A stretch of 63,640 nt of DNA, filler included, from Chrysochromulina tobinii (GCA_001275005.1; 6 parts of 6 records of this genome joined end to end with filler, not necessarily neighbours in it), one strand, 5' to 3'; counted from the whole stretch's first letter, positions 24,344 through 54,718 are shown. Notes: generated by a model not told the origin, from the letters alone. Program-made: numbers and translations.

Positions 24344-24420
24344 GGAGGTAGAGGGTGTTTGTCAGATTCTCCGGGATTGTCGGTCTTGTCATGAGATATT
24401 TCTGAGCAGTGAACTTTTAG

Positions 24421-25681
24421 ATGGAGAGTAGTCGCACGCCCTACGTGCATGCATTCCTCGTGTCCTGCGTCCGCAATCGTGGAAAACCGTGCCTCTGTCA
24501 GAAGAATCGTGAGACGAGAGCTGACGCGCAGTGCCGCCTCGCTGACATGCTCTTCACCGGGAGTGGCGCACCCAAGGACGAGGAGGAGGCGCGGCGGCTG
24601 CTTGGCCTCGCGGCCGCGCAGGGGGATGCTGACGCGCAGTGCCGCCTCGCTGACATGCTATTCGAAGGGCGTGGCGGACCCAAGGACGAGGAGGAGGCGC
24701 GGCGGCTGCTTGGCCTCGCGGCCGCGCAGGGGGATGCTGACGCGCAGCACTCGCTCGCTCGCATGCTCTACGATAGGGGTGGTGGACCCAAGGATGAGGT
24801 GGAGGCGCGGCGGCTGCTTGGCCTCGCGGCCGCGCAGGGGCATGCTGACGCGCAGAACTGCCTCGCTCACATGCTCTACGAAGGGCTCGGCGGACCCAAG
24901 GATGAGGTGGAGGAGCGGCGGCTGCGTGGCCTCGCGGCCGCGCAGGGGCACGCTGAAGCGCAGTTCTCCCTCGGGGTCATGCTCCACGATGGGCTCGGCG
25001 GACCCAAGGACGAGGTGGAGGCGCGGCGGCTGCTTGGCCTCGCGGCCGCGCAGGGGCACGCTCAAGCGCAGTGCGGCCTCGCTAGCATGCTCTACACAGG
25101 GCGCGGCGGACCCAAGGATGAGGTGGAGGCGCGACGGCTGCTTGGCCTCGCAGCCGCTCAGGGGCACGCTCAAGCGCGGTTCCGCCTCGCTCGCATGCTC
25201 TGCACAGGGCACGGCGGACCCAAGGACGAGGTGGAGGCGAGGCGGCTGCTTGGCCTCGCGGCCGTGCAGGGGGATGCTGACGCGCAGTGCGGTCTTGCTG
25301 GAATGCTCTACTCAGGGCGTGGCGGACCCAAGGACGAGGTGGAGGAGCGGCGGCTGCTTGGCCTCGCGGCCGCGCAGGGGCATGCTATCGCGCAAAACCG
25401 CCTCGCTGACATGCTCGTCTTAGGGCTCGGCGGACCCAAGGATAAGGTGGAGGCGCGGCGGCTGCTTGGCCTCGCGGCCGCGCAGGGGCATGCTGAAGCG
25501 CAGAACCGCCTCGCTGACCCGCTCTACTTTGGGCTCGGCGGACCCAAGGACAAGGTGGAAGCGCGGCAGCCGCGTGTGACCAAAGCGCGCCAGGGTGCAT
25601 CCGAGAACGCTACGGCTCAGGTCGAGGACGCTGCTGCGCTGGCGGCCGCGGCAGCGCGCGCGGATGCGGCAATGGCAGCGC
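24421..25681 (+). CDS. Sel1-repeat protein (about 9.7 x 36 aa), 3'-truncated by the contig end
   Basis: 108-bp near-identical units from 24520: A.AQ..LA.ML..G.GGPKDEVEARRLLGLAAAQG. Confidence 0.85.
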
Positions 25682-25781
25682 NNNNNNNNNNNNNNNNNNN
25701 NNNNNNNNNNNNNNNNNNNNNNNNNTTAATTAATTAANNNNNNNNNNNNNNNNNNNNNNNNNNNNNNNNNNNNNNNNNNNN
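25682..25781. other. Artificial contig spacer N44-TTAATTAATTAA-N44
   Basis: Identical 100-nt linker with stops in all six frames, seen five times in the window. Confidence 0.98.
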
Positions 25782-32596: not shown

Positions 32597-32696
32597 NNNN
32601 NNNNNNNNNNNNNNNNNNNNNNNNNNNNNNNNNNNNNNNNTTAATTAATTAANNNNNNNNNNNNNNNNNNNNNNNNNNNNNNNNNNNNNNNNNNNN
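32597..32696. other. Artificial contig spacer
   Basis: N44-TTAATTAATTAA-N44. Confidence 0.98.
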
Positions 32697-35600
32697 GGCG
32701 GCGAGGGCGAGGGCGGCGGTGGCGAGGGCGGCGGTGGCGACGGCGACGGTGGGGGTGGCGACGGTGGCGACGGCGGCGGCGGGGAGGGCGATGGCGGAGG
32801 CGGTGAGGGAGAGGGCGGCGGCGGCGACGGCGGCGGTGGGAAGGGCGATGGCGGAGGCGGCAGCGAAGGTGGTGGGGGTGCTGGGCAAGTTGAGACTGTG
32901 CCAGAGACGCCGGTGAGGGTCGTTGACCAGGAGCAGACGGTGCCTGCATTGACATAGACATTGGGCCCCTGGGTGGGAAGTAGGGGATGCGAGATCACAA
33001 AGGAGGACACAAAAGCAAGGCATCCCTTGGGGCGATGGGAATGCCCTTGGGGCGATGGGAACTTTTGAGCGTGAGCACGCACTGATACAGCTGTGTTGCC
33101 AGTGATGGTGCACGATGAGATGGCCACTGTGCCAGAATAGACATAGACACCACCACCCTGCAAGCAATGAGCGAAACCTGAGTCTCCCATGGGGGCGATG
33201 GGAAACTTTGAACATGAGCACGCACATAGTCAGCTCTATTCCCACTGATCAAGGAAGACGTTATCGTGACCGTGCCAGAATAGACGTAGACACCACCTCC
33301 CTGCAAACAACAAGCAATTTTGTGAGTTTCCCATGGGGGCGATGGGAACTTTCGAACATGAGCGTGCACACATTTGCAACTGTGTTCCCACTGATGGTGC
33401 TAGATGAGATGGTCACTGAGGGTGAACGCTCTGTGTTCCCACAGATGGTGCAACCCCCTACATTGACACCGCCGCCCTGCAAACAACGAGCAAAACGTGA
33501 GTTTCCCATGGGGGCGATGGGAACTTTTCAAGGAATGCGGCACGTACATACTGTAGTTGACCGAAGCGTTCGCAGTTGTGCAAGCGTGAGTCGAGGCAAG
33601 CGCGTCAGCAATTCTCCCATTGGGGCGATGGGAACTTTTGAAGTTTCAGGCTAGCACGTACTCCATCCTGGTAGTTCGAGGCAGCACCCATCATAAAAGA
33701 TGAGAATCGAAATGGACATGTCAACAAGGCATTTTCCCATCGGGGCGATGGGAACTTGCAGTACGCACCCCCTGTGGTTGACAGCAGTTGTACATCAAGC
33801 GTGAGTCAGGGCAAGCATGTCAGCAATTCTCCCATCGGGGCGATGGGAAATGTTGAAGATGAGCGCGCACATCGCCAGCTGTGTTGGAGTAGATCTGGGA
33901 GTTATTCACAATTGACACTGTGCCAGAATACATGACATGGACACCACCGCCCTGCAAACAACGAGCAAAACGTGAGTCTCCCATAGGGGCGATGGGAACT
34001 TTCAAGTTCTCTGCGGTAGTTGAACGTACCCCCTGTAGTTGACCAAAGCATGAGCAGTTGTGCAAGCGTGAGTCAGGGCAAGCACGTCAGCAATTTTCCC
34101 ATCAGGGCATTGGGAAACTTTAGGTCTCTGCCGCACGTACGCCACAGTTATAGCACTGCGCAAGCGAGAGTAGAGGCAAGCGCGTCAGCAATGTTCCAAT
34201 CGGGACGATGGGAAACATTTCCCATGGGGCGATGGGAACTTTTCAAGGTCTATGCGGCACGTACATACTGGAGTTGACCGGAGCGTTCGCAGTTGTGCAA
34301 GCGTGAGTCGGGGCAAGCACGTCAGCAACTTTCCCATCGGGGCGATGGGAACTTTTGAGCACGAGCACGTACATAGTTAGCTTGGTTCCCACTGATGGTG
34401 CACGATGAGATGGTCACTGTGCCTCCCCCGACATAGACACCGCCGCCCTGCAAACAACAAGCAGAGAACAAACGTGAGTCTCCCACATCGGGGCGAACTT
34501 TTGAGCGTGAGCGCGCACATTGCTAGCTTTATTCCCATAGATCGAGGAAGACGTTATCGTGACCGTGCCGGAAGAGACATGCACACCGCCTCCCTGTAAG
34601 CACAAGTGCAAAACATATGTGAAAATCCCATCGCGCATCGGGGCGATGGGAACTTTTCAAGGAATGCGGCACGTACAAACTGTAGTTGACCGAAGCGTTC
34701 GCAGTTGTGCAAGCGTGAGTCAAGGCAAGCGCGTCAGCAATTCTCCCATCGGGGCGATGGGAACTTTTGAGCATGAGCACGCACATTTCTAGCTTGATTG
34801 GAATACACTTGGGAGTTGACGATTGAGACAGTGCCGGTTAAGACAAAGACACCGCCGCCCTGCAAAACAACGCGCAAATCGTGAGTCTCCCATGGGGGCT
34901 ATGGGATTCTCGAAGGTCTCTGAGGCACGTACGCAACACTGCGCAAGCGAGTCGAGGCAAGCGCGTCAGCAATCTTCCCATTGGGGCAGCAATCTTCCCA
35001 TTGGGGCGATGGCGATTTGCAAGCAAGGCTGGCACGTACCCCTCCCTGGTAGAACAAGATTTGATCCCAATTGAACGGCGAGAGTCGAATCGCATGTCAG
35101 CTGGGAAATTTGCAAGGTATCTGTGGCACGTACATTCTGTAGTTGACCAAAGCGTTCGCAATTGTGCAAGCGTGAGTCGGGGCAAGCATGTCAGCCATTT
35201 TCCCATTGGGGCGATGGGAAGTTTTGAACATGAGCACGCACATCTTCAGCAGCTGTGTTGGAGTAGATCTGGGAGTTCACGATTGACACTGAGCCTCCAT
35301 AGACAACAACACCGCCGCCCTGCAAACAACGAGCAAAATGTCAGTCTCCCATCGGGGCGATGTGGGAACTTTTCAAGGTCTCCATGGCACACACCCACTG
35401 AACATGTAGTTGACCGAAGCGTTTGCAGTTGTGCAAGCGTGAGTCGGGGCAAGCACGTCAGCAACTTTCCCATAGGGGCGATGGGAAACATTGAAGGTCT
35501 CTGGCAGTCTCTGCGGCACATACAGCCTGTAGTTGACCGGAGCGTCGGCCGCAGTTGTGTGCAAGCGTGAGTCGAGGCGAGCACGTCAGCCATTTTCCCA

Positions 35601-37016
35601 TCAGGGCGATGGGAACTTTTGAGCGTGAGCGCGCGCGCGCACATAGTCTGCTGTATTCCCGTAGATCGAGGAAGACGTTATCGTGACCATGCCAGAATAG
35701 ACGTAGACACCGCCTCCCTGCAAACAACAAGCAATTGTGAGTTTCCATGGGAGCGATGGGAACTTTGAGCATGAGCGCGCACATTTGGAGCTTGGTTCCC
35801 ACTGATGGTGCACGATGAGATGACCACAGATGTGCCACCCTGGACATAGACACCGCCGCCCTGCAAACAACGAGCAACACGTCAGTCTCCAATGAGGGTG
35901 ATGGGGAATCTACAGGTCTCTGCGGCTGCCACGTACATCTACAGGTCTCTGTACGTACCCCCTGGTGATGTTGAGCCCAATCAGTTGCACGACGACGCCC
36001 AACGAGCCCGGGTTGATGTACAGCACGCGGCGCGGACTCGAAGAGCTGGCTTGTGCATCCAGCACGACCGAGCCTGCCACCGCCGCCTCGAGGACGACGC
36101 TCCTGGTGATGCTGAGCTCGGCATTGAGGAAGTAGGTGCCGGGGGCAAGGACAATGCGGTCGACGGCGGTGTTGGCGAGTGCACTGGTCAGGCCTGCGCT
36201 GGTGCTCACCGCGGTCTGCAGCTCACGGCGGTGGCTGGGCACAAGCTGCATGGAGTACAGCCCGGGAATGTCGCTGGCTTCGGTGCAGGGCAGCACGGTG
36301 CACGGGAGCGGCGGAAGCGGCAATATGGGCAACGAGGGAGGCGGCTGGGACTGCATCCGAACGTGTGGAGGCGTTGGAATTGGTAATGGCGGCATGGGTG
36401 GGGGCGGTGCCGAGGACCAATGCGGAGGGCCAGAGTCTGGAGGGTACAAGGATAGCGTGGATGGAAGCACAGATAGGGGTGGAGTTAGGCGTGGCAGCGG
36501 CCGTGTCGGGGATGGAAGCGGCGTTGATGGGGATCGCGGGAACGGAGGGGCCGCAACGGGGCTGCTGCCTGCAGAGGTGCTGAGTGCGCTGGTCGGGCTG
36601 GGGGCGACGTCGGCCTGGGCCTGCTGCGCACGACGGTGGTTGAGCTGCGCTGCGTGCATCCCGACAGCAAGAGCGCGATGGCTCGTTTCGGCGACGGTTG
36701 AGACCACCACGCCCGGGGGATCAGGCGGGCACGTGCCGCACGCGACCGGGCAATTGGTCCACGCCAAGGAATAGGAGGCACACGCGGAGGGCTGTGCTTC
36801 AAAGTAGGAGCATGGTAGGGGTGCGCCGGTCGCGTCCAAGGCGCCGCTGTTCACATCATCGGCGCATAAGTGAGTGGGCGGCGGCGGCCGCGGTGGCTGC
36901 ATTTGCGCGGACTCTGCCCGATGCGCAGCACCAGTCCCATCGCCATCAATCAGTGCCGTCGTCGCCATGGCGCTCACCCCGGGGACGATGAGGGCGAGGA
37001 AGGCCAATATGACCCA
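32697..37016 (-). CDS. Multi-exon parallel beta-helix (Pmp/pectin-lyase-like) surface protein with ShK-like Cys module and Pro-rich stalk; 3'-partial, 5' end uncertain
   Basis: The large exon ends at 35937. Repeat exons: 35783-35860, 35643-35717, 35242-35319, 34785-34859, 34519-34593, 34373-34447, 33871-33951, 33372-33476, 33226-33300, 33083-33157; each encodes GGGV.V..G.V.I....I..N.A.. The terminal exon starts at 32968 (GPNVYV...CPAPPPPS..). All junctions are CAG|exon|GT, phase 0. Confidence 0.85.
33020..35910 (-). repeat. Family of homologous introns centred on the hairpin TTCCCATCG-CCC-CGATGGGAA, enclosing 12 putative micro-exons
   Basis: The motif, or a degenerate copy, is present in 22 of the 23 introns; a perfect 9-bp stem is at 34331-34351. 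Confidence 0.85.
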
Positions 37017-38049
37017 CTCGTTACGGGAGGAGCGATTGTTCTTCGACCAAATCACAATGTGCGTGTTCCGGCCGGACCGTTCCTGCTCCGAGCAAACTGC
37101 ATGGACGAGCAGCCCGCCGAGCCTGAGCAGCAAGAGCGCGCCGTCGAGGCACTTTACCCACCGTAAAGGCGCACCGTTCCTTTTCGCCCCTTCATCGACG
37201 GGGACGCCCGCAGTGTCCTCGTATGGGAACGAGTACTTGACGTCGGCGTTCCAGAGCTTGCTCTCGATGAAGAGCTCCTCAATTGCGATCTCAAAGACCT
37301 GGCGCACGCCCTCGCGCAGCCCGTTGTCGGCCGTCATCGAGTTACGCCCGGCGCAAGTGCATGCAGCACCGTGGTAGATGGCGCACGGGTCGATGGTGGA
37401 GTTGCCTGCCGGGTTGCGGTGGAGGTCAGTGCCGCCGACCGGGGTGGATAGGCACGGGCACAACACCATGTTCCGGCAATCAATCTTAGAGATGATGGAG
37501 AATGGATTCGAGCATATGTTTGGCGGTGGGTTGGGTGCCGGATGCACTGCTGGTGACCGTGGAGGCGGCGTTGGCATGGAGACGCGCGGTTGAGAAAGCA
37601 GTGGAGAAGGCGGTGAAGAGGGCGGTGGAGAAGGCGGTGTTGACAGCGGCGGTGGCGGTGGCGGCGGTGGCGACGGCGGCGGAGGCGACGGCGGATAGGC
37701 ACACGTTGCGAACTCTGACCCAGGGCCGCTGCCGTCGTCGCTGCACGAGCTACCGCCGTCGTTGAGGCAGTTGTTCATGCAGACCGTGGCAGGGGAATGT
37801 GGCGGGGGGGGCGGCGACGCGCTGCGCACGCCGCAGTCGCCGCAGTCGGTGCCGACCACGCACATCGGGAACTCGGAGCCGGGGCCAATGTCGTCGCAAT
37901 CGTTGCAATTGTTGTCGGAGAGGAGCACGCTGGTGTCCAAAGACAAGAAAGACGGCGGGGCGGACGAAGTTGCACCGAGGATGGGCTGACAGCCTCCCCG
38001 CAGGGGCATCTTATCCCCGTCAAAGGGTGTCGAGGTTGCGCCAAACTCC

Positions 38050-39645
38050 TCCGTGGCCGACTCGAGCTCGGCCTTGAGCTCGTGCACGGCCTTGAGCTCG
38101 TGCACGGCGACCTCGTCGAACAGCTTCTCGGCCTTCATCAGGCCAAACTTGGCCGCGGTCAGGGCGACCTCCTTGTAGGCCGCGCCGGGCTTCTGCGAGA
38201 GCGTCACGACGACATTGAGCGCCGGCAGCAGGGTGCACAGCGGCTCGACGCCGAAGCGCTCCGGGAAGCCCGAGGGCTGGCCCAGCATCGAGATCACGAG
38301 GAGATTGCGCCCCTTGATCTGCTCGTGCGCAAAGGCCATCGCGTACATCTTCTGGAGCTCCTTGGGGTACGCCCTGACGAGCGCGCCCACCGCCAGGTCG
38401 GTCGACATGTCGACGAACGTGCTCTCGACGTTGACGTAGCGCGTGAGGAGGGTACACGTGACGTCGATGGCGTTCTCGCGCAGGCCCTTGGCGTACTTGT
38501 CGATCTGCGCCGTCACGGGCGCGATGATGATGCGCACGTTGGCCTGCATCGACTCAAAGGGCGACTTGACGAACTTCCCCACGACGGCGCGCACCTTGGC
38601 CACCAGGTTGTCGTTAAGGTTGTCGGTCTCGGTCGAGTCCATGCCGTTCAAGTGCTCGGGGAGCGTGGCGGCGTACACCTTCTGCATCATCGCGTAGAGA
38701 TCCATCGGCATCTTCTGGCCGAGAGCGGACGCAGCATCCTTGATTTCCTCGATGGGCAAGCTAATCGACGCGAGCGCCGAGAGCATGGCCTGCACCGCGG
38801 GCTCGGCGTCGAGCACGTAGCCGTCCATCACGAGCTCGAGCGTCTTCTGCGCCTTGCGGAAGCGCTTGAGCGTGGCGGAGCTGGCGACCATCTCCTCACC
38901 GGTCGCGTACTCGAGGGTCCCGCTGAACGTGCCGATCTTCTTGACGCGGGGCGGGTCCGCGAGCGTGAGGGAGGCGAGCAAGTCGCCCTGGTTGATGATG
39001 GAGCCCGCGGGCTTCTCGTGCTTGATCACGTCGCCCTCGTGCTTGTTCGCGCCGCTCTCGGTCGCATTGAGCGTGATGATCATCTTCATCGCCTTGGCCT
39101 CCAGGAACGTCTCGCCCTTCTTGACGCTGGCGCCGTCCTCAACGGTGTTGCGAACGAGCTTGCCGGTGATGTCCGAGCGCGGGTCATACAGGGTCGGGAG
39201 GAGCACGGCCACGTCGTGGAGCACCATGCGCAGGCCGAGGGCCTCTTCCTTGGCGAAGACCTGGTGCGACTCAACGCCGCAGGCCACGTACATGGAGCCG
39301 TCGGCCAGCTCGCGGTAGCGCCCCTCGATCGACTGCGCTCCCATATTGAGGACCATCTTGTCTGGCGCCTTGGGCGTCACCCGGAACGAGTACTTGACGT
39401 CGGCGTACGTGATGTCAACCGGGATCGACTGATGCTCCTTCAGGGGCAGGGTCGAGAGCTGGCCCTTGCCGAGGTTGTCCTTGAAGTTGGCAATGCCGCC
39501 CTGGATCATCTGCTTGTAGGCGGGGAAGACGGCCGTGTTGATCACAGCCGAGGAGGGGACGATGGTGATCACGTCCGACTTATGGACGACAATGCCGTCG
39601 AGCCACGCGGTGTCGATGGTGATTGACTTGAAGGCATCCGTCTCG
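38050..39645 (-). pseudogene. Degenerate internal fragment of a eukaryotic acetyl-CoA carboxylase (biotin-carrier and central region)
   Basis: IDTAWLD, LADG, YDP.SDITGKLVR, EAKAMKMII (MKM at 39081-39089), GSIINQGDLLA.L.L.DP..VK and KY.KGLRE. Small deletions and duplications (VHELKAVHELKA); no complete BC or CT domain. Confidence 0.75.
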
Positions 39646-41185
39646 CCATATGAGGGCTTGCCTTGGGATGGCTGCGCGCAGGCACGAGGAACGTGTCTCA
39701 GCTGGGGCAGGGCGTTGGAGCTGCAGCGGGCTGCAGCGGGCTGGAGCGTGGCAGGCGGTAACGTGTGTGTGGTGTGTGCGGTGAAGTTGAAGGTGTAGCA
39801 GAGGTGCTGGGGATGCAGAGCACAACCCATGATGGATCTGTGCTCTCGCTGAGGTGGCGCTACACGGCGGGTGAGTGCAGGCAGGGGTACACGGCGGACG
39901 GGATGAGCATCGCGCCGACGCGCCACGCCGACAGCGCCGGCGCCTCGAGCATGATTGAGTCCGACTCCATCTCCGTCGTCAGCGACGCCGGCAGAGGCGA
40001 CAAGGCAAGTGCATGAGGAGGAGCATGCCCCGACGAGGCCGCGGTGGTGCTTGTTGTGGCGGCCATGGCATCGATGATCAGGCCGAAGCAGACGGCGCTG
40101 CAGGCTTCTCGCCGCCTGGCCATGCGGCAGAGCCCGCGGGCGTGACGACGGCCGGATCCTCGTGACCGAGCTGTCGACGTTGTGCCTGCCGGTCGTGGCG
40201 GAGATGTCGAGGGCGCGGTGGCCGTCGAGCCCGAGCGCTCGCAGCTGCAGCTGCCTGCACCGGGGGAGCAACGCGAAAGCCGTCAGCATAACTGGCGAGG
40301 TGGCGCGCTCGCTCGCACGTGCCGATGGCCAGCGCAAGTGGCGTCGCGCTGAGGCGGGCGCGGAGTCTGCGGAGTCGGGCAGGCGCAGGAGCGGACATCG
40401 CGCGCGCGCGGCCTCGTGCGCGCGCGCCTGCAGCATGCACACCGGCCTCGCGCGCGCAGCGGCAGGGCCGACCGAGGCTGCGCCGCATGCGTGGCGGCCG
40501 GCCGGGCTGGGGGGCACACCTGTGGATGGTGGGTTGGCATCCCTGGGCGATGAAGAGGTTGGTGACGAAGTATAACGACGTAGATCATGGGGTGGATCGT
40601 CTTGCCCGCATTCTAGTGCCCCGCGGCGCGTCCATTGTGATGTGTGCGCTCGGCGGGTGGTGTGCGTGCGGAGTTGAGTGTGGCGGGGCTATCGTGTTGA
40701 TCTTGCGTGGCGGCTGGGCGAAGAGGGCGGAACTTGGGGCGGAGATCGCACCTCGAACTGAAGCGGAGATTGAACCTCGAATTGCGTAGCGCCTTGGCCG
40801 GCGGCGGCCGAGGCGTTGTTGTCCTCATGAAGCTGGTAGGACGAACCAGGGGTCTCGCCGACCGCGGTGGGCGACGAGAAGGTCTTGTCTTGCGAGGGCT
40901 GCGCGAATGCACGAGAAACGTGTGAGCTGGGGCACGGGCGGTGGAGTGGAAGCGGGCTGCGAGTGGCAGGCGGTGACGTGAGTGTGTGGTGCGTGCAGTG
41001 TAGATGCAGGTGAGTGCTACACGGGTGAGTGTGGGCTGTCGTCGTGCGAGAGGCGGTGATGTGGTGGACCCGTGCCGAGAGGCGGCGCGGCGTGGAGGCC
41101 GTGGTGGTGCTTGCTGCGGAGATCATGGCGCCGATGACCAGGACGGAGTCGACGGGGCCGTTCTTGATGGTGAGCGGGTCGAGCA

Positions 41186-41285
41186 NNNNNNNNNNNNNNN
41201 NNNNNNNNNNNNNNNNNNNNNNNNNNNNNTTAATTAATTAANNNNNNNNNNNNNNNNNNNNNNNNNNNNNNNNNNNNNNNNNNNN
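41186..41285. other. Artificial contig spacer
   Basis: N44-TTAATTAATTAA-N44. Confidence 0.98.
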
Positions 41286-41588: not shown

Positions 41589-44500
41589 ATGTCTGGCCCC
41601 TGCTCTCCTACCCGCACGAGCTCCATGGCGGCGAGCGTGAGGAGGGCCGCGGACGAGGTCCATGGCGCCCAGGGCTCGAAGGGCTATTCGGGCTCGTGCG
41701 CGACGACCATACCGTCGCGCCTCATGCAGCAGGCGGCCGAGGCGGCCAAGCTCGGCGAGCAGGCGACCAAGCTCGGCAAGGAGACCGCCGTGCTGCGCGA
41801 GCGCGCCGACTCGCTGCAGGCGCAGTGCGAGGTGCTGGCCAAGAAGGCGGACGCCTCCGAGGTTGCCCGGTCCCAGGCGGTCGAGCAGCTGCGCGTCGCG
41901 CAGGCGGAGCGCGCCCTCGTCGACCAGACGGTCAGCCGGGCGGACAGCTTGGTGGCCGAGCTCCGCGCGGAGCGCTCGGTGCTCGCGGCGCGCGCGCACG
42001 AGGCCGAGGCGCTGTGCCGCGCGCTGCAGGCCCAAAAGTCCGCCGCCGAAGAGGCCCGCGCCCAGCTGAGCGAGCTGTACGCCGTCGCGCAGGCGGAGCG
42101 TCGGCTGCTCGACGACAAGCTCGAGCGTGCGCTCGCGCAGCTAGATGAGCTCAAGGCAGAGGCGGCCGCGAGGCGACAGGAGGCGGCGGCGCGGCACGAG
42201 TCGCTCGAGACGGCGCGCGACGAGGCTCGCTCCGAGCGCGCGACCCTCCAAGCCCAGTACGCCGTCTGCCAGGCGGAGCGCATGCACGTCGACGAGGCGA
42301 TGGCGACGGCGAGTCAGCAGGCGGCCAAGGATCTGGCCGCGCTCAAGGAGCAGCTCGCGGCCTTGGATGCGCGCTGCTTGGCGTCGGTCGCCGAGGCGCG
42401 TAAAGAGCAGGCGGCGGTCGAATCTCGTTTGGAGGAGGTGGGCTCCTGATGACGCCCTCTGATTGCCCTTGATTGCGGTCGAATCTCGTTTGGAGGAGGT
42501 GGGCTCCTGATGACGCCCTCTGATTGCCCTTGATTGCGGTCGAATCTCGTTTGGAGGAGGTGGGCTCCTGATGACGCCCTCTGATTGCCCTTGATTGCGG
42601 TCGAATCTCGTTTGGAGGAGGTGGGCCACGGATGGCCAATTTGGATTCCATGTGATTGCATCCCTCATCAGGTCTCCACGGATGGCCGATTCGGATTCCC
42701 ATCGAATGGCGCTGATGAGAGCGATGATTGCCTCCCTCATCAGGTCTCCAAGGAGCTCGCGGTCGCCCTCGCGGAGAAAGCGCTCTACCAGCAACTTACC
42801 GGTAGGCTGCAGCAGATGCAGCTCGAAGAACGCGCCGCGGCGAGCACCTCTCGCGCCAAGGCGGAGGCGGAGAAGGCCGATCTGGGCGCGCGCCTCGAGG
42901 CGCTCGAGACGGCGCTCGCTCTCGAGCGCGAGCGTGCAACCGTCGCGGAGGGCGAGGCCAAGCTGCTGCTGGAGAGAGCGTTGAGAGCTGAGGTGATGAT
43001 GCTTGATGACCGTTGATGACCGTTGATGACCGTTGATGACCGTTGATGACCGTTGATGACCGTTGATGACCGTTGATGAAAGTTGATGACCATCGATGGC
43101 CCTTGATGGCCATGTCCCTCCCTCTAAGTATCGCCTCGGATTGCCTCCCTCATCAGACGAGCATGCAAGCGGTCGCTCAGAAGTCCGTGGGGGAGGCTGC
43201 CACGTGGCAGGCGGAGCGGCGGCAGTGGGAAGAGATCAACCGGCAGCAGGAGGAGCAGCTGCATACCTTGCAGATCGAGCGGGCGACGCACCAGGGTCTC
43301 GAGGAGCGCTTTCGTGAGATGATGGGTCAGCGAGATGCAGCCGAGGTGAGCATGGCGATTCCCTCTGATTGAGATGATGGGTCAGCGAGATGCAGCCGAG
43401 GTGAGCATGGTGATTCCCTCTGATTGAGATGATGGGTCAGCGAGATGCAGCCGAGGTGAGCATGGTCGATTCCCTCTGATTGCATGCGATTGCCTCCCTC
43501 ATCGGGCGAGATGCGAGCATACGCGACCTGCAAGAGCATGCAACATCCCGCTGATTGCCCCATAATTGCCCCATAATGGTCGCATAATTGCTCCATAATT
43601 GCACCATAATTGCCCTATAATTGCCCCTGGTCGCCCGAATCGCCTCCCTCATCAGGCGAGCATGCGCGACCTGCAAGAGCATGCGGCCTCAGTAGCCTCT
43701 CGCTCGCTTCTGCTTGAGGACCGAGCGAAGACGGCGGAGGCGGCGCTCGAGTTACTCAAGGCGGATTTGCAAGAGGTGATGACCTCGGATGACCTCGGAT
43801 GACCTCGTATGACCTCTGATGACCTCTGATGACCCCCCTCATCAGGTGAAGACCAAGGACCGCGAGCGAGAGGAACGTGTGAAAGAGTTCCAACGGCAGC
43901 GCGACGCGGTCCAGCGCGAGCGCGCGAGATTGCAGGTGATTGCCACTCAAGGGCGCCACTCTGATTGCCGCTCTGATTGCCACTTTGATTGCCGCTGACG
44001 ATCTCCCAAGGCTGAGGTCGCGTCGCCCCTCGAGATTGCGCGAGATTTCATCGAGAATGCAGGAACGATTGTCCACCGCCACGGCCTCTGAGTGCCCTGA
44101 TGAGCTCTAATTGCCTCTGATGGCCTCTGATTGCAGGAGCAATTGTCTACCGCCACAGCGGACGCACGCGCCGCCGGCGAGAGGGAGCATTCGCTCTACG
44201 TGCGCAATGCGGTGCTCGAGCAGCAGTTACAGACGGCATGCATGCAAGCCTCGGTCCCGACGCCGACGGAGCTTGAGGCCGCTCAACGACCTTCACCGGC
44301 CGCCAGCGCCACCGCCGCTGCCCTCGGCTCACCGCTTGCCCCTGGTCTGGTGGCGAGGATCAGCAATGCATTCGGCAGCACCCTCCCACCTTCTCTCACC
44401 CGCTCGCCCCCTGGCACCATATTAGGCAAGGACGGTGCCATGTTAGGCAACACCCTCCCCGCGTCTCTCACCCCCGGTAGGGCCCCCGGCAAGGCCATCG

Positions 44501-45129: not shown

Positions 45130-47843
45130 ATGCTCATCGACCCGGGGCGAGGTGCTCGGCCGGGCCTCTTCGATGCAATGCAGGTCTGCAAGTCCTGCCG
45201 GAGCAAGGCGGGTGGCCGAACCGACACAGGCGGCGTCTTCTACTGCAACAGCTGTTGGAAGGGCTGGACGAATGTGGACGTCGAGCTCACTCTGACGGCC
45301 TCCGGAGGCACGGAAATTTCGGGTATCGGCCAGTTCGTCACGCTACTATGCGCGTGGATCCGGACCAGGGGCGAGCAGCGCGTGACTGCTGCGCAGCTCG
45401 GTGTGTTTTACGCCGCGCACCCGTCGGTGGACCGCTCTGTGCTCCCAGCGACCAAGAAGCTCGAGTACTTATGCGGCCACGCTGAGGCACGCGGGCGCCT
45501 CAAGTTTCAGCCTGACCCTAAGGCCTCCGGCGGCGGATGGCTCGAGATCGTACAGGTGGCACCAGCACCAGCGCCAGCTCATGGCGCAGAAGATGCTGTA
45601 GCAGCCCTGTCCAAGTACGTCGAGAGTTGCGGCGGCGAGATCTCAGCCGCTAGCGGCGTCGCTGATTTTTACAATTGGGCGATGCACGATGGCGACGCTT
45701 TCAAGGAGGCGCTTCGCTCGCTCGGCTTCAAGAAGGCGGAGGTCTTTGCGCGCCACGGGCTCTTGTTGGAGAGGCACGAGAGCGGCTCTGATTTGATCAA
45801 GCTCATCGACCCGGGGCGAGGTGCTCGGCCGGGCCTCTTTGATGCAGTGCAGGTCTGCAAGTCCTGCCGGAGCAAGGCGGGTGGCAGAACCGACACAGAC
45901 GGCGTCTTCTACTGCAACAGCTGTTGGAATGACTGGACGAAGGCCGCAGCTGAGAAGGCCGCAGCTGAGAAGGCCGCGGCGGAGAAGGCCGCAGCGGAGA
46001 AGGCCGCAGCTGAGAAGGCGGCGGCGGAGAAGGCCGCAGCTGAGAAGGCCGCAGCTGAGAAGGCGGCGGCGGAGAAGGCCGCAGCGAGAAGGCCGCAGCG
46101 GAGAAGGCCGCAGCTGAGAAGGCCGCGGCGGAGAAGGCCGCGGCTGAGAGGGTCGCGGCGGAGAGGGCCGCGGCTGAGAAGGCCGCAGCTGAGAAGGCGG
46201 CGGCAACCAAGAAGGCCGCCGACGAGAAGGCCGCAGCGGAGAAGGCCGCAGCTGAGAAGGCCGCGGCGGAGAAGGCCGCAGCGGAAAAGGCCGCAGCTGA
46301 GAAGGCGGCGGCGGAGAAGGCCGCAGCTGAGAAGGCCGCAGCGGAGAAGGCCGCAGCGGAGAAGGCCGCCGCTGAGAAGGCTGCAGCGGAGAAGGCGGCG
46401 GTGGAGAAGGCCGCAGCTGTGAAGGCGGCGGCGGCCAAGAAGGCCGCCGACGAGAAGGCCGCAGCCGCGAAGGCGCCGCCGCCGCCGCCTGGACTCAAGC
46501 TCGAGGGCGGCTCGCTGACTGGCGAAGCGGCCAAATACATCGGCACGTACCATCTCGACCGCAGCAAGCTTGTGAACGGCCGGCCCGCGTATCAGCACAC
46601 GAGTGACGCAACTCTCTGGATTGCGTTCGATGGAGATAGCTGGATGGGGCAGCCTGATTCAGAACTTGGTGAGGGGTGGGGCTACCTGTACCTACAAGAC
46701 TCAGCTGCAGCTTCGCCCGACGTGAGCGCTTATACATGGCAGGCGAGTGCAGGCGGTGCTTCTGCTTGGGTTGAGCAGCCGCAGCTCAAGTGCACCGCTT
46801 GGCCGCCGCCGCTTTCAGCCGCCGAGAAGGCCGCCGCTGAGAAGGCCGCCGCAGAGAAGGCCGCGGCTGAGAGGGCCGCGGCGGAGAAGGCCGCAGAGGA
46901 GAAGGCCGCAGAGGAGAAGGCCGCAGCGGTAAAGGTTCGTGTGGAGGAGAAGGCTCGTCGCGCGCTGGAGGAGGACGGCTTCGCCCTTCGGCCTATGCTC
47001 GTGTCAGATGCAAGCGTGCTACGCTCCCTCGAGGCGCTGCTCCAGACAGAGTACCCAGAGTGGCTTGGCAAGGGCAAGGACGTGTCGAAAAAGTACGGCC
47101 CGTATGACTCGCTGAAGCTTGCCTGCGCGTGGAAGGTCGACCATCCACGCAACCTGGACAAGTACACGGCCGGCGTGAAGCGCGTTCAGGAGGAGATGGA
47201 TCTGCTCAAGAAGAAGGGCAAGGATGTCGACAAGGTGCCAGGCCTGCCGGTGAGGACGGCTCGTGCAGCTGCAGAAGGCTTCACCATGAAGGCAGGCGCC
47301 AACGAGGCCATCCTCCTGCATGGCACCAGCCCGGATCGGCTGCTAGAGCTGCTGTCCACGGGCCTGAACGAGCGCTACTCGGGCACCAACGCGGGCACCG
47401 CCTTCGGCGACGGCGTCTACCTCGCTGAGGACGTTGGCAAGACGGATCAGTACGTCGGCGCCGACAGCGCGTACGACCCGAGCAATGAGCTGCACAAGCG
47501 GCTGTACGGCAGAACCGTGCGCCACCCTGGCGACGTCTTCTACGTTCTCGTGGTGCGCGCGGCCCTCGGCTACCCCGTGCGCACACAGCAGGTGGGCCAG
47601 ATGGCCACCTCGATGGACAATCTCACACCCATCTTCCCCATAGGCTATCGGGAGCTCTCGGAGGTGCATGGCGTCACGCCACCAATCGTCCACCACTCGC
47701 TGATCGCCGAGCTGGGCCCCGCGATCGCGCGCTACCGCGAGTTTGTTCTCTTCCACTCCGAGTACGTGCACATCGACTACCTCATTGCCTACCACCGCTG
47801 CAACGGCGGTCAGAAGCTGAGCACAGCGACGCACAATCCGTAA
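45130..47843 (+). CDS. PARP-like ADP-ribosyltransferase with duplicated CxxC..CxxC Zn module and (AAAEK)n linker; 1-nt frameshift near 46086
   Basis: [26 protein letters not shown] and YREFV.F....IDYLIAY (H-Y-E triad). ORFs 44725-46422 and 46401-47843 join if one G is restored in gcagcg[g]agaag. Confidence 0.8.
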
Positions 47844-48257: not shown

Positions 48258-48357
48258 NNNNNNNNNNNNNNNNNNNNNNNNNNNNNNNNNNNNNNNNNNN
48301 NTTAATTAATTAANNNNNNNNNNNNNNNNNNNNNNNNNNNNNNNNNNNNNNNNNNNN
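48258..48357. other. Artificial contig spacer
   Basis: N44-TTAATTAATTAA-N44. Confidence 0.98.
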
Positions 48358-48359
48358 CC

Positions 48360-49579
48360 TCTCGCCCGCCCTCTCGGGCCGCCGGCATCATCGCCGCCGC
48401 CGCCGCCGCTTTCGGCCCTCGCGCCGCCGTGCCCATGGTGGCCGTCACGCCCGTCGTGGCCGCAGCCGCGCCTGCCGCTCAAGTAGGCGCGCCTTGCGTT
48501 CAAGATGCCGCGTCCGGTGGCCTCCTCAGCACCGCGCCATTGCCGAGCACCGTGCACACTGGGTCCCTCATCGCACCTGAGTGCGCCGGAGGCAGCGGCG
48601 ACCAGGGCGAGTTGGAGGGCTTTGACGAGGGTCATGACGAGGGCCACTACGAGACTAGCTACGAGACTGGCTACAAGACCGGCTACGAGGCAGGCTACGA
48701 AGGCAACCGCGAGGGCGGCTACGAGGGCGGCTACGAGGCCGGCTACGAGGGCGGCTACGAGGCCGCCGGCGAGGCCGCCATCGCCGCCGCCCCAACCGCT
48801 GCCCCGACCTTATCGCCAGCGCCAGCGCCTTTTCGCCCATCTACGGCGATGTCCCGAGCTCCACGTGCCCCCTCCGCTCCACCCCGCCTCATCCACCGGC
48901 CCTCCTCTCTTGCGCACTCCGCCTCGCTGCCGCCCGCCCCTCGCGCCGCCGCCCCTCGCCCCTCGGGCTCATGGCCGCCGCCACCCTCCACGGTGCGTGA
49001 GGCGGCGGCAGCGGTTGGAAGGCGGAGCCGAGGCGGGCGCAGCAGCCGCGGCAGCCGCGGCGCCGCCTCCCTCTCGCCGCCGCCACGCTCGCCGCCCTCT
49101 CCGCCCTCGCCACCCAAGGCAGCGCTCAAGGCGGTGCTCAAGAGCAGAGCATCTCCACTCCCCACAGCATCTCCACTCCCCACAGCATCTCCACTCCCCA
49201 CAGCATCTCCACTCCCCACAGCATCACCACTCCCCAAGCCGCCGCCAGCCAGATCCGCACAGCTAACTCACGCCGCCGCAGCAAGTCCCACCGCCGTCGC
49301 CCTGCGCACGCCGCACCGCACCGCCTGTGGCGACTGCAGCGGCAGCCGCCGGAGTTGCAGCGGCGGCACGGTGAGCAGTGGCATGGCGTCTGTACCCTTC
49401 TCGCCTGCAGCCAACGCCTCGCGCGCCCACGCCGCCATCCTCACGGACCCGCCTGGCGCCTCTCCCGCTTCCGCCCCCTCCACCTCGCGCCACAGCTCCA
49501 TGAGCAGCTGCGGTTGCCCCCCTCCCGCCACACCATCCAGCCGACCACCCCCCCACGCCCTCCAGCCGCGCTTCCTACC

Positions 49580-54618: not shown

Positions 54619-54718
54619 NNNNNNNNNNNNNNNNNNNNNNNNNNNNNNNNNNNNNNNNNNNNTTAATTAATTAANNNNNNNNNNNNNNNNNNNNNNNNNN
54701 NNNNNNNNNNNNNNNNNN
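54619..54718. other. Artificial contig spacer
   Basis: N44-TTAATTAATTAA-N44. Confidence 0.98.

Follow-up and report, generated by a model that had tools for sequence, protein, structure and literature searches.

Single-codon, phase-0 micro-exons probably write variable loops of a predicted beta-helix in Chrysochromulina, with likely diversification by cassette recombination in DNA

Single-codon exons are usually rare curiosities. A 63,640-nucleotide stretch of Chrysochromulina tobinii DNA, hereafter the window, contains a minus-strand gene in which a preliminary description listed twelve micro-exons between exons encoding beta-helix repeats, raising the questions of whether such pieces are spliced into mRNA, what they write in the protein and how they come to differ. 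We found single-codon exons by the hundred in one gene family, up to six of them consecutively. Our analysis indicates that phase-0 micro-exons are most probably spliced in to write variable loops of a predicted beta-helix, the loops being likely diversified by recombination of DNA cassettes from hairpin to hairpin.

On the minus strand, positions 32968-35936 resolved into 23 GT..AG introns (65-126 nt), 10 repeat exons (75-105 nt) and 12 micro-exons. The coordinates and letters of all 12 micro-exons agreed with the preliminary description, each preceded by a YAG acceptor and followed by a GT donor, and its claim that all 12 are stop-free, phase-0 pieces with lengths divisible by 3 also held for this gene. 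The repeat exons were likewise multiples of 3, every exon of the gene was in phase 0, and the joined frame contained no stops. In all 12 donor-to-donor segments, the sole YAG past base 40 sat 3, 6 or 15 bases before the next donor. As a control outside the gene, 29 donor-like sites had a YAG within 33 bases, at a distance divisible by 3 in 9 cases and at 3 bases in none, and a further 24 donor-like sites were without a YAG. A locus from another assembly (L037) showed no mismatches to the window over 6,847 overlapping bases, but since it may represent the same strain, this identity guards against assembly error only. The features, in order of transcription, are as follows.

35937..40688, minus: long open frame ending in E0 (beta-helix N-terminal cap, ...LIGLNITRG), with E0 homologues in Chrysochromulina tobinii/parva; open frame 35910-40688, 1,592 codons
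35936, minus: E0/R1 donor, placed by the reading frame
35783..35860, minus: repeat exon R1, 78 nt, one predicted beta-helix coil
35643..35717, minus: repeat exon R2, 75 nt
35524..35526, minus: micro-exon A
35395..35397, minus: micro-exon W, with a new YAG serving as acceptor
35242..35319, minus: repeat exon R3, 78 nt
35134..35136, minus: micro-exon N
35040..35045, minus: micro-exon GG
34933..34938, minus: micro-exon CC
34785..34859, minus: repeat exon R4, 75 nt
34677..34679, minus: micro-exon F, whose cassette shares 97% identity with that of Y at 33548 over 135 nt
34519..34593, minus: repeat exon R5, 75 nt
34373..34447, minus: repeat exon R6, 75 nt
34265..34267, minus: micro-exon Y
34141..34155, minus: micro-exon CYNCG, 15 nt
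34030..34032, minus: micro-exon G
33871..33951, minus: repeat exon R7, 81 nt
33769..33771, minus: micro-exon G
33662..33667, minus: micro-exon DG
33548..33550, minus: micro-exon Y
33372..33476, minus: repeat exon R8, 105 nt, with an internal partial duplication
33226..33300, minus: repeat exon R9, 75 nt
33083..33157, minus: repeat exon R10, 75 nt
32697..32968, minus: last visible exon, C-terminal cap and proline stalk, cut by a contig linker; the remainder of the gene lies outside the window
33030..35762, minus: shared central intron hairpin (TTCCCATC..GATGGGA type), a likely crossover point; 18 of 18 left-arm matches of the window fall inside the gene

Position 40688 bounds the E0-bearing open frame and need not be its true start. 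The E0/R1 donor choice is uncertain, as 35936 preserves the frame and 35958 would break it; this junction (35861-35958, minus strand) has two donor-like sites 22 bases apart and a 15-base direct repeat, the second site alone being in frame. At the corresponding position, P0006 is without an intron. In the W cassette (35395-35410, minus strand), the AG of the usual acceptor is mutated and a new YAG lies six bases on, again 3 nt from the donor.

Upstream, the 1,592-codon frame encodes fragments of acetyl-CoA carboxylase (ACC; BT, biotin-lipoyl and part of the central region) along with Cys- and Pro-rich stretches. With its C terminus missing and broken enzyme fragments in the upstream frame, the window copy may be non-functional. 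Paralogs carry ACC or M16 peptidase fragments at the same upstream place, as though captured fragments of genes moved along with the family. Five N-padded linkers join the contigs of the window (25682-25781, 32597-32696, 41186-41285, 48258-48357 and 54619-54718), so neighboring genes across linkers are unlinked.

With the E0 exon as query, 296 proteins matched, the named ones coming from C. tobinii and C. parva, and a metagenome scan in which the searched gap was left free from 0 to 30 bases recovered 100 loci. A strict donor was present in 94 of 113 distinct anchor contexts (91 at 3 bases and 3 at 6), and the remaining 19, read by eye, had variant donors at 3 (18) or 6 (1). We parsed the loci in two ways, both taking the first YAG as acceptor and both leaving some long segments unresolved. 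The first parser dropped 20 of 421 segments (17 for a weak donor, 3 with the donor before the acceptor) and found 230 of 231 short pieces in frame without a stop. The second, across about 100 metagenome loci, found 263 of 263 short pieces to be multiples of 3 with no stops, which bears out the length bias that the preliminary description had proposed as a check. Micro-exons fell into eight length classes (3, 6, 9, 15, 21, 24, 30 and 36), all divisible by 3.

We rejected naive (1/3)^n chance statistics because the cassettes are homologous and hence not independent, a caution already voiced in the preliminary description for duplicated copies. Codon usage was more informative. Among 186 single-codon cassettes, 34 codons were used, and NAG codons, which would rival the acceptor, were depleted, with CAG, AAG and TAG observed 0 times against 3.3, 5.5 and 11.1 expected. 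True stop avoidance was modest (0 TAA plus TGA against 3.6 expected). A stop test that included TAG (P 2e-7) was discounted as inflated, since TAG doubles as a rival acceptor. The eight length classes and the NAG depletion are better evidence of selection than raw in-frame counts. The residues written by the single-codon cassettes were led by G (22.5%), Y (11.5%), S (8.1%), N (8.1%) and C (7.3%), and micro-exons as a whole were rich in G, Y, S, N, C, D and W, in keeping with the residues typical of binding surfaces that had been proposed. Four loci (L001-L003 and L029) were left out of the modularity, codon and loop-codon counts.

The 95 parsed loci grouped into 45 clusters, which mix alleles and strains. 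Of 85 complete loops, 38 had no micro-exon, 30 had one and 17 had two to six; the 47 filled loops included 34 distinct ones. A search of a viral collection gave three pattern matches with gaps far from 3 or 6; L001 was without the hairpin, and P0125 was without a viral relative. Several minor features accompanied the parses. At L018 (4395-4402), a GC donor follows a micro-exon, and alleles L033 and L078 differ by a 3-base tandem acceptor that leads to QYG or YG. Database models of family genes (P0066, P0084 and P0103) read through or mis-splice the repeat region, which is a warning for annotation.

That these pieces are spliced exons follows from comparisons of sister genes. L029 equaled L005 at all 1,101 bases except for three exact GT..AG introns absent from L029, one of which separates two 3-nt exons in L005 that are joined in L029. 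Three further sequences, P0012, P0121 and P0014, aligned to L058 over four repeat exons, with 0-1 mismatch per exon, and contained its pieces Y, S, SY and GDVTAG(I/L) in the same order. These three retain the intron after repeat 4, 5 and 6, respectively, resembling a ladder of splicing intermediates, and the intron retained in P0012 translates to the last intron of L058. In RNA run X6, a contig compared by hand matched 36 of 36 letters across the end of E0 of L018, a 3-nt G codon exon and the next exon. The X6 contig is the only one of these copies known to be RNA; since the introns were removed exactly from L029 and from the P0012 trio, splicing at the predicted sites is indicated whether those copies are RNA or DNA. 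In these paralogs, the micro-exons therefore combine GT..AG flanks with presence in a spliced product, as spliceosomal micro-exons do.

Other RNA joints, read by hand, kept the frame; some were short, others had one to three added codons, and none was matched to a gene. The RNA runs contained only 0.05-0.10 of the query words, and six of the eight (all but X7 and X8) were examined. The claim that the pieces are real spliced exons was thereby substantiated for three sister genes; for the window allele, no spliced join appeared among the 24 listed of 176 joint rows, and its exact matches in run X4 were all unspliced. We consider it nearly certain that the micro-exons of the family are real, and their splicing-in at the window allele is presumed from its paralogs.

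The preliminary description went further in suggesting combinatorial diversification by exon skipping; if each cell skipped different micro-exons and coils, alternative splicing could give up to 2^12 loop sets from the window gene. Such combinatorial splicing would be tolerated by a gene in phase 0 throughout, and every intron carries the two arms of one shared hairpin, so that pairing between arms of separate introns might loop out the exons in between. Short and extended loops were both seen in RNA contigs, and both analogous systems discussed below use alternative splicing, as described in the available parts of PMC4350168 and PMC11378527. The short RNA joins need no skipping, however, because 38 of the 85 genomic loops have no micro-exon. 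Against skipping, every micro-exon spanned by the three matched spliced copies was included, and among intron-free proteins none of 40 loop pairs with near-identical flanking coils differed by a clean deletion (27 were the same, 8 were substituted and 5 differed in length plus substitutions). Contigs drop rare forms, so this absence of skipped forms weighs little against the idea, which so far finds no support in our data and which we consider unlikely.

The residues added by micro-exons had been placed in the loop between N-x-A and the next GGG of the beta-helix, a location supported by both the repeat sequence and the predicted fold. A single-sequence model of P0014 (mean pLDDT 59, pTM 0.66) placed three strands in each repeat and had low confidence along the loops written by micro-exons (115-128, 175-182 and 259-264), so that the modeling check suggested earlier yielded a predicted beta-helix with micro-exon residues in low-confidence loops. 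A wide structure search with this model retrieved right-handed beta-helices (best Z 23.4, rmsd 3.6, 271 aligned), and Foldseek gave no match at E<=0.001 and only weak beta-helix matches. Among five intron-free sequences, Pfam PMP-repeat or beta-helix families scored above cut-off for P0117, P0125, P0001 and the L016 domain, and none did for P0014. Repeat motif and predicted fold alike are those of a right-handed, PMP-like beta-helix, and with one exon per coil the loops would stack on one face.

Downstream of the ectodomain, L005 and L057 encode a membrane helix predicted by hydropathy and a kinase (Pfam E 3.5e-38; L005 2490-5063, plus strand). L031 (4839-6701, plus strand) combines a long proline stalk with a predicted membrane helix and an ADP-ribosyltransferase domain (ART, E 3.1e-19), and further stalks lie downstream in other paralogs. 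The same ectodomain is followed by different cytoplasmic tails, kinase or ART. The idea of a receptor thus gains from the predicted receptor-like layout of these paralogs; the window allele itself is cut at the contig end before any tail.

We then consider how the loops diversify. Among 315 introns, the 5' half was of the beta type after 200 of 209 micro-exons and of the alpha type after 98 of 106 repeat exons, and the 3' half was of type A before 112 of 115 repeat exons and of type B or C before 183 of 200 micro-exons. The 5' half thus tracks the upstream exon type and the 3' half the downstream type, in all combinations, the halves meeting at one shared hairpin. A strict hairpin pattern fit 203 of the 315 introns, and whole-intron folding was clearly better than shuffles (z below -2) in just 1 of 8 introns. 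Because half-intron types follow the neighboring exons, the unit of copying appears to run from hairpin to hairpin, although part of the pattern could stem from selection on splicing signals.

Different loci shared eleven near-identical blocks. We viewed 10 of their 22 boundaries by eye, and 7 were true switches, of which 5 coincided with the hairpin and 2 fell immediately ahead of the acceptor of a micro-exon; these boundaries come from metagenome assemblies, in which misjoins at repeats could shift some. L020 and L070, for example, share 267 nt from hairpin to hairpin with two mismatches, one of which turns YS into YL. Subject to the same assembly caveat, the mosaic blocks indicate that repeat exons have been reshuffled between loci. 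The observation that the codon varies within conserved flanks was also borne out: in a nearest-neighbor test of 16 pairs, micro-exon codons differed at 0.375 per site against a mean of 0.068 and a maximum of 0.175 in 30 intron triplets, a roughly fivefold excess over the flanking intron. Neighbors in this test were picked on held-out columns, as picking on the flanks gave bias. An L018-type locus parsed alike across several assemblies, giving no hint of rearrangement within a clone. Diversification of a receptor-like surface by cassettes at the DNA level is the likeliest mechanism, and we regard it as probable.

The route that we propose has six steps. One 75-105 nt exon corresponds to one coil of the predicted fold, and 0-6 micro-exons then extend the loop after N-x-A, an arrangement read directly from the genes. 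The spliceosome would use the sites flanking the 3-nt exons, as it does in the paralogs. Each intron would be a half-cassette joined at the shared hairpin to half of the next, as the mosaic patterns suggest, and unequal crossover or gene conversion at the hairpin may add, drop or swap a codon or a coil with the frame kept. The codon outpaces its flanks, a pattern that might arise from diversifying selection or from exchange directly at the splice boxes. Back-copying of spliced mRNA may sometimes merge cassettes, yielding longer exons or domains free of introns. Finally, judging from the predicted architecture, the products are likely surface receptors or adhesins that would bind changing ligands, for example viruses, prey or other cells.

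The similarity among the introns invites an explanation by mobile elements, in which an introner repeatedly inserted into the loops and cut them into codons, the diversity being incidental. As described in the available part of 10.1101/2022.06.06.494994, introners with 4-bp target duplications occur in a Chrysochromulina genome, and some introners have neither target duplications nor terminal inverted repeats. Paralog domains without introns also exist on long contigs (P0128, 30.7 kb; P0125, 37.9 kb), in line with this explanation. However, a 4-nt junction repeat was present in only 6 of 399 introns and terminal inverted repeats in 1 of 399. Hairpins numbered 376 within gene chains against 1 in 61,727 flank bases, and all 18 left-arm matches in the window lay inside the gene. 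Moreover, insertion of one element does not predict intron halves tied to the type of the neighboring exon.

Intron-free domains bear on the same issue. They occur in L016 (108-1160, minus strand), P0128, P0125, P0097 and P0116, several on contigs of 30-44 kb and often with the final intron kept; P0128 is 94% identical to the L016 domain and retains the same final intron. In L016 itself, the intron-free domain comes after one that bears introns. The nine-codon loop of the intron-free L016 domain uses codons typical of micro-exons (about 2000:1, calculated by hand), which favors loss over gain and suggests copying back from spliced mRNA, a route by which introns may have been lost. We hold an origin as an introner by-product to be very improbable. 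That the micro-exons are unused relics of tandem duplication, within long introns removed whole, is scarcely credible and, for the family, already largely refuted. In its favor, the cassettes are homologous to one another and no spliced join of the window allele is among the listed joint rows; against it, both splice sites are used exactly in three paralogs, the 263 in-frame pieces span eight length classes, NAG codons are depleted and the W cassette regained its acceptor at 3 nt.

Probable recombination of DNA cassettes has implications for recognition. Exon-cassette swapping in DNA likely gives a single-celled alga a highly diverse receptor repertoire, in which the single codon, the smallest possible module of exon shuffling, is the unit by which a predicted binding surface varies. 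More speculatively, and less likely than not, recognition could be anticipatory: receptor loops would be programmed codon by codon from interchangeable single-codon cassettes, the intron hairpin would be a dedicated signal for recombination or splice pairing, and a clone facing giant viruses or other enemies would produce new combinations within a few generations, whether through targeted recombination, through skipping or through both. The family is a concrete candidate for the means by which a unicellular alga diversifies its recognition, with testable parts in the hairpin, the cassettes and the kinase and ART tails, as well as a natural test case for how the spliceosome defines consecutive 3-nt exons. 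The question of how recognition is diversified is raised for brown algae in the available part of PMC3341825. A search of the literature on micro-exons and receptors in Chrysochromulina, haptophytes and algae, with subscription papers and supplements outside its scope, did not find the family described, nor did we find anything on it in the available part of the C. tobin genome paper (PMC4580454).

The family works like exon shuffling in brown-algal ROCO genes combined with schistosome micro-exon genes (MEGs), and it is a member of neither, since it lacks their defining domains or gene structure. With brown-algal ROCO (LRR) and NB-ARC-TPR genes, as described in the available parts of PMC3341825 and PMC11378527, it shares one solenoid repeat per phase-0 exon, reshuffling between loci and candidacy as algal receptors. 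In contrast to those genes, it encodes a beta-helix with a predicted membrane helix and not LRR-ROC-COR or NB-ARC-TPR; Pfam on 10 sequences found only beta-helix, PMP, kinase, ART and ACC domains plus a weak PRIMA1, with no LRR-ROC-COR or NB-ARC-TPR. It also has a second tier of 1-12 codon exons that writes the loops, and its short introns are homologous to each other and built modularly around a single hairpin. Opposite-strand spare exons, a feature of the brown-algal genes, were not noticed here in an unsystematic look.

With MEGs, the family shares runs of very small symmetrical exons and variable host- or environment-facing proteins. The available parts of PMC10526429 and PMC4350168 describe MEG exons as mostly 15 bp, making up most of the coding region, separated by introns of 0.1-5 kb and alternatively spliced. 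Here, the very small exons are likewise all multiples of 3 (263 of 263), but they are mostly 3 nt, form inserts in a folded scaffold, are flanked by introns of 65-150 nt (65-126 nt in the window gene) and were seen only to be included. Nor do they dominate the coding region: in the window gene, micro-exons total 57 nt and repeat exons 792 nt. Introners of Chrysochromulina sp. and other algae (10.1101/2022.06.06.494994, available part) resemble the present introns in being many and similar in sequence, and differ from them in the duplications, inverted repeats and exon-tied halves considered above, as well as in the confinement of the hairpin to one gene family among the sequences scanned.

GG(G/A)V..N-x-A repeats and fold are shared with Chlamydia PMP-repeat and other right-handed beta-helix proteins (PF02415, PF13229; pertactin-like, tailspike, lyase), whereas the present genes are eukaryotic and intron-split, with a proline stalk and, in some paralogs, kinase or ART tails. 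A fold in common with PMP proteins shows no function. Lamprey VLR cassette assembly, Dscam and integron attC are familiar cases of cassette-based diversification, attC being a palindrome between cassettes. The binding-surface cassettes are alike, and the inter-cassette palindrome here recalls attC; somatic assembly, mutually exclusive splicing and a dedicated recombinase, in contrast, are not part of the present picture. VLR is also mentioned in the available part of PMC3341825. Elsewhere in the window, other tandem arrays occur at 24412-25683 (108-nt units), 45907-47014 (15-nt), 42964-43131 (10-nt) and 48601-48792 (12-nt).
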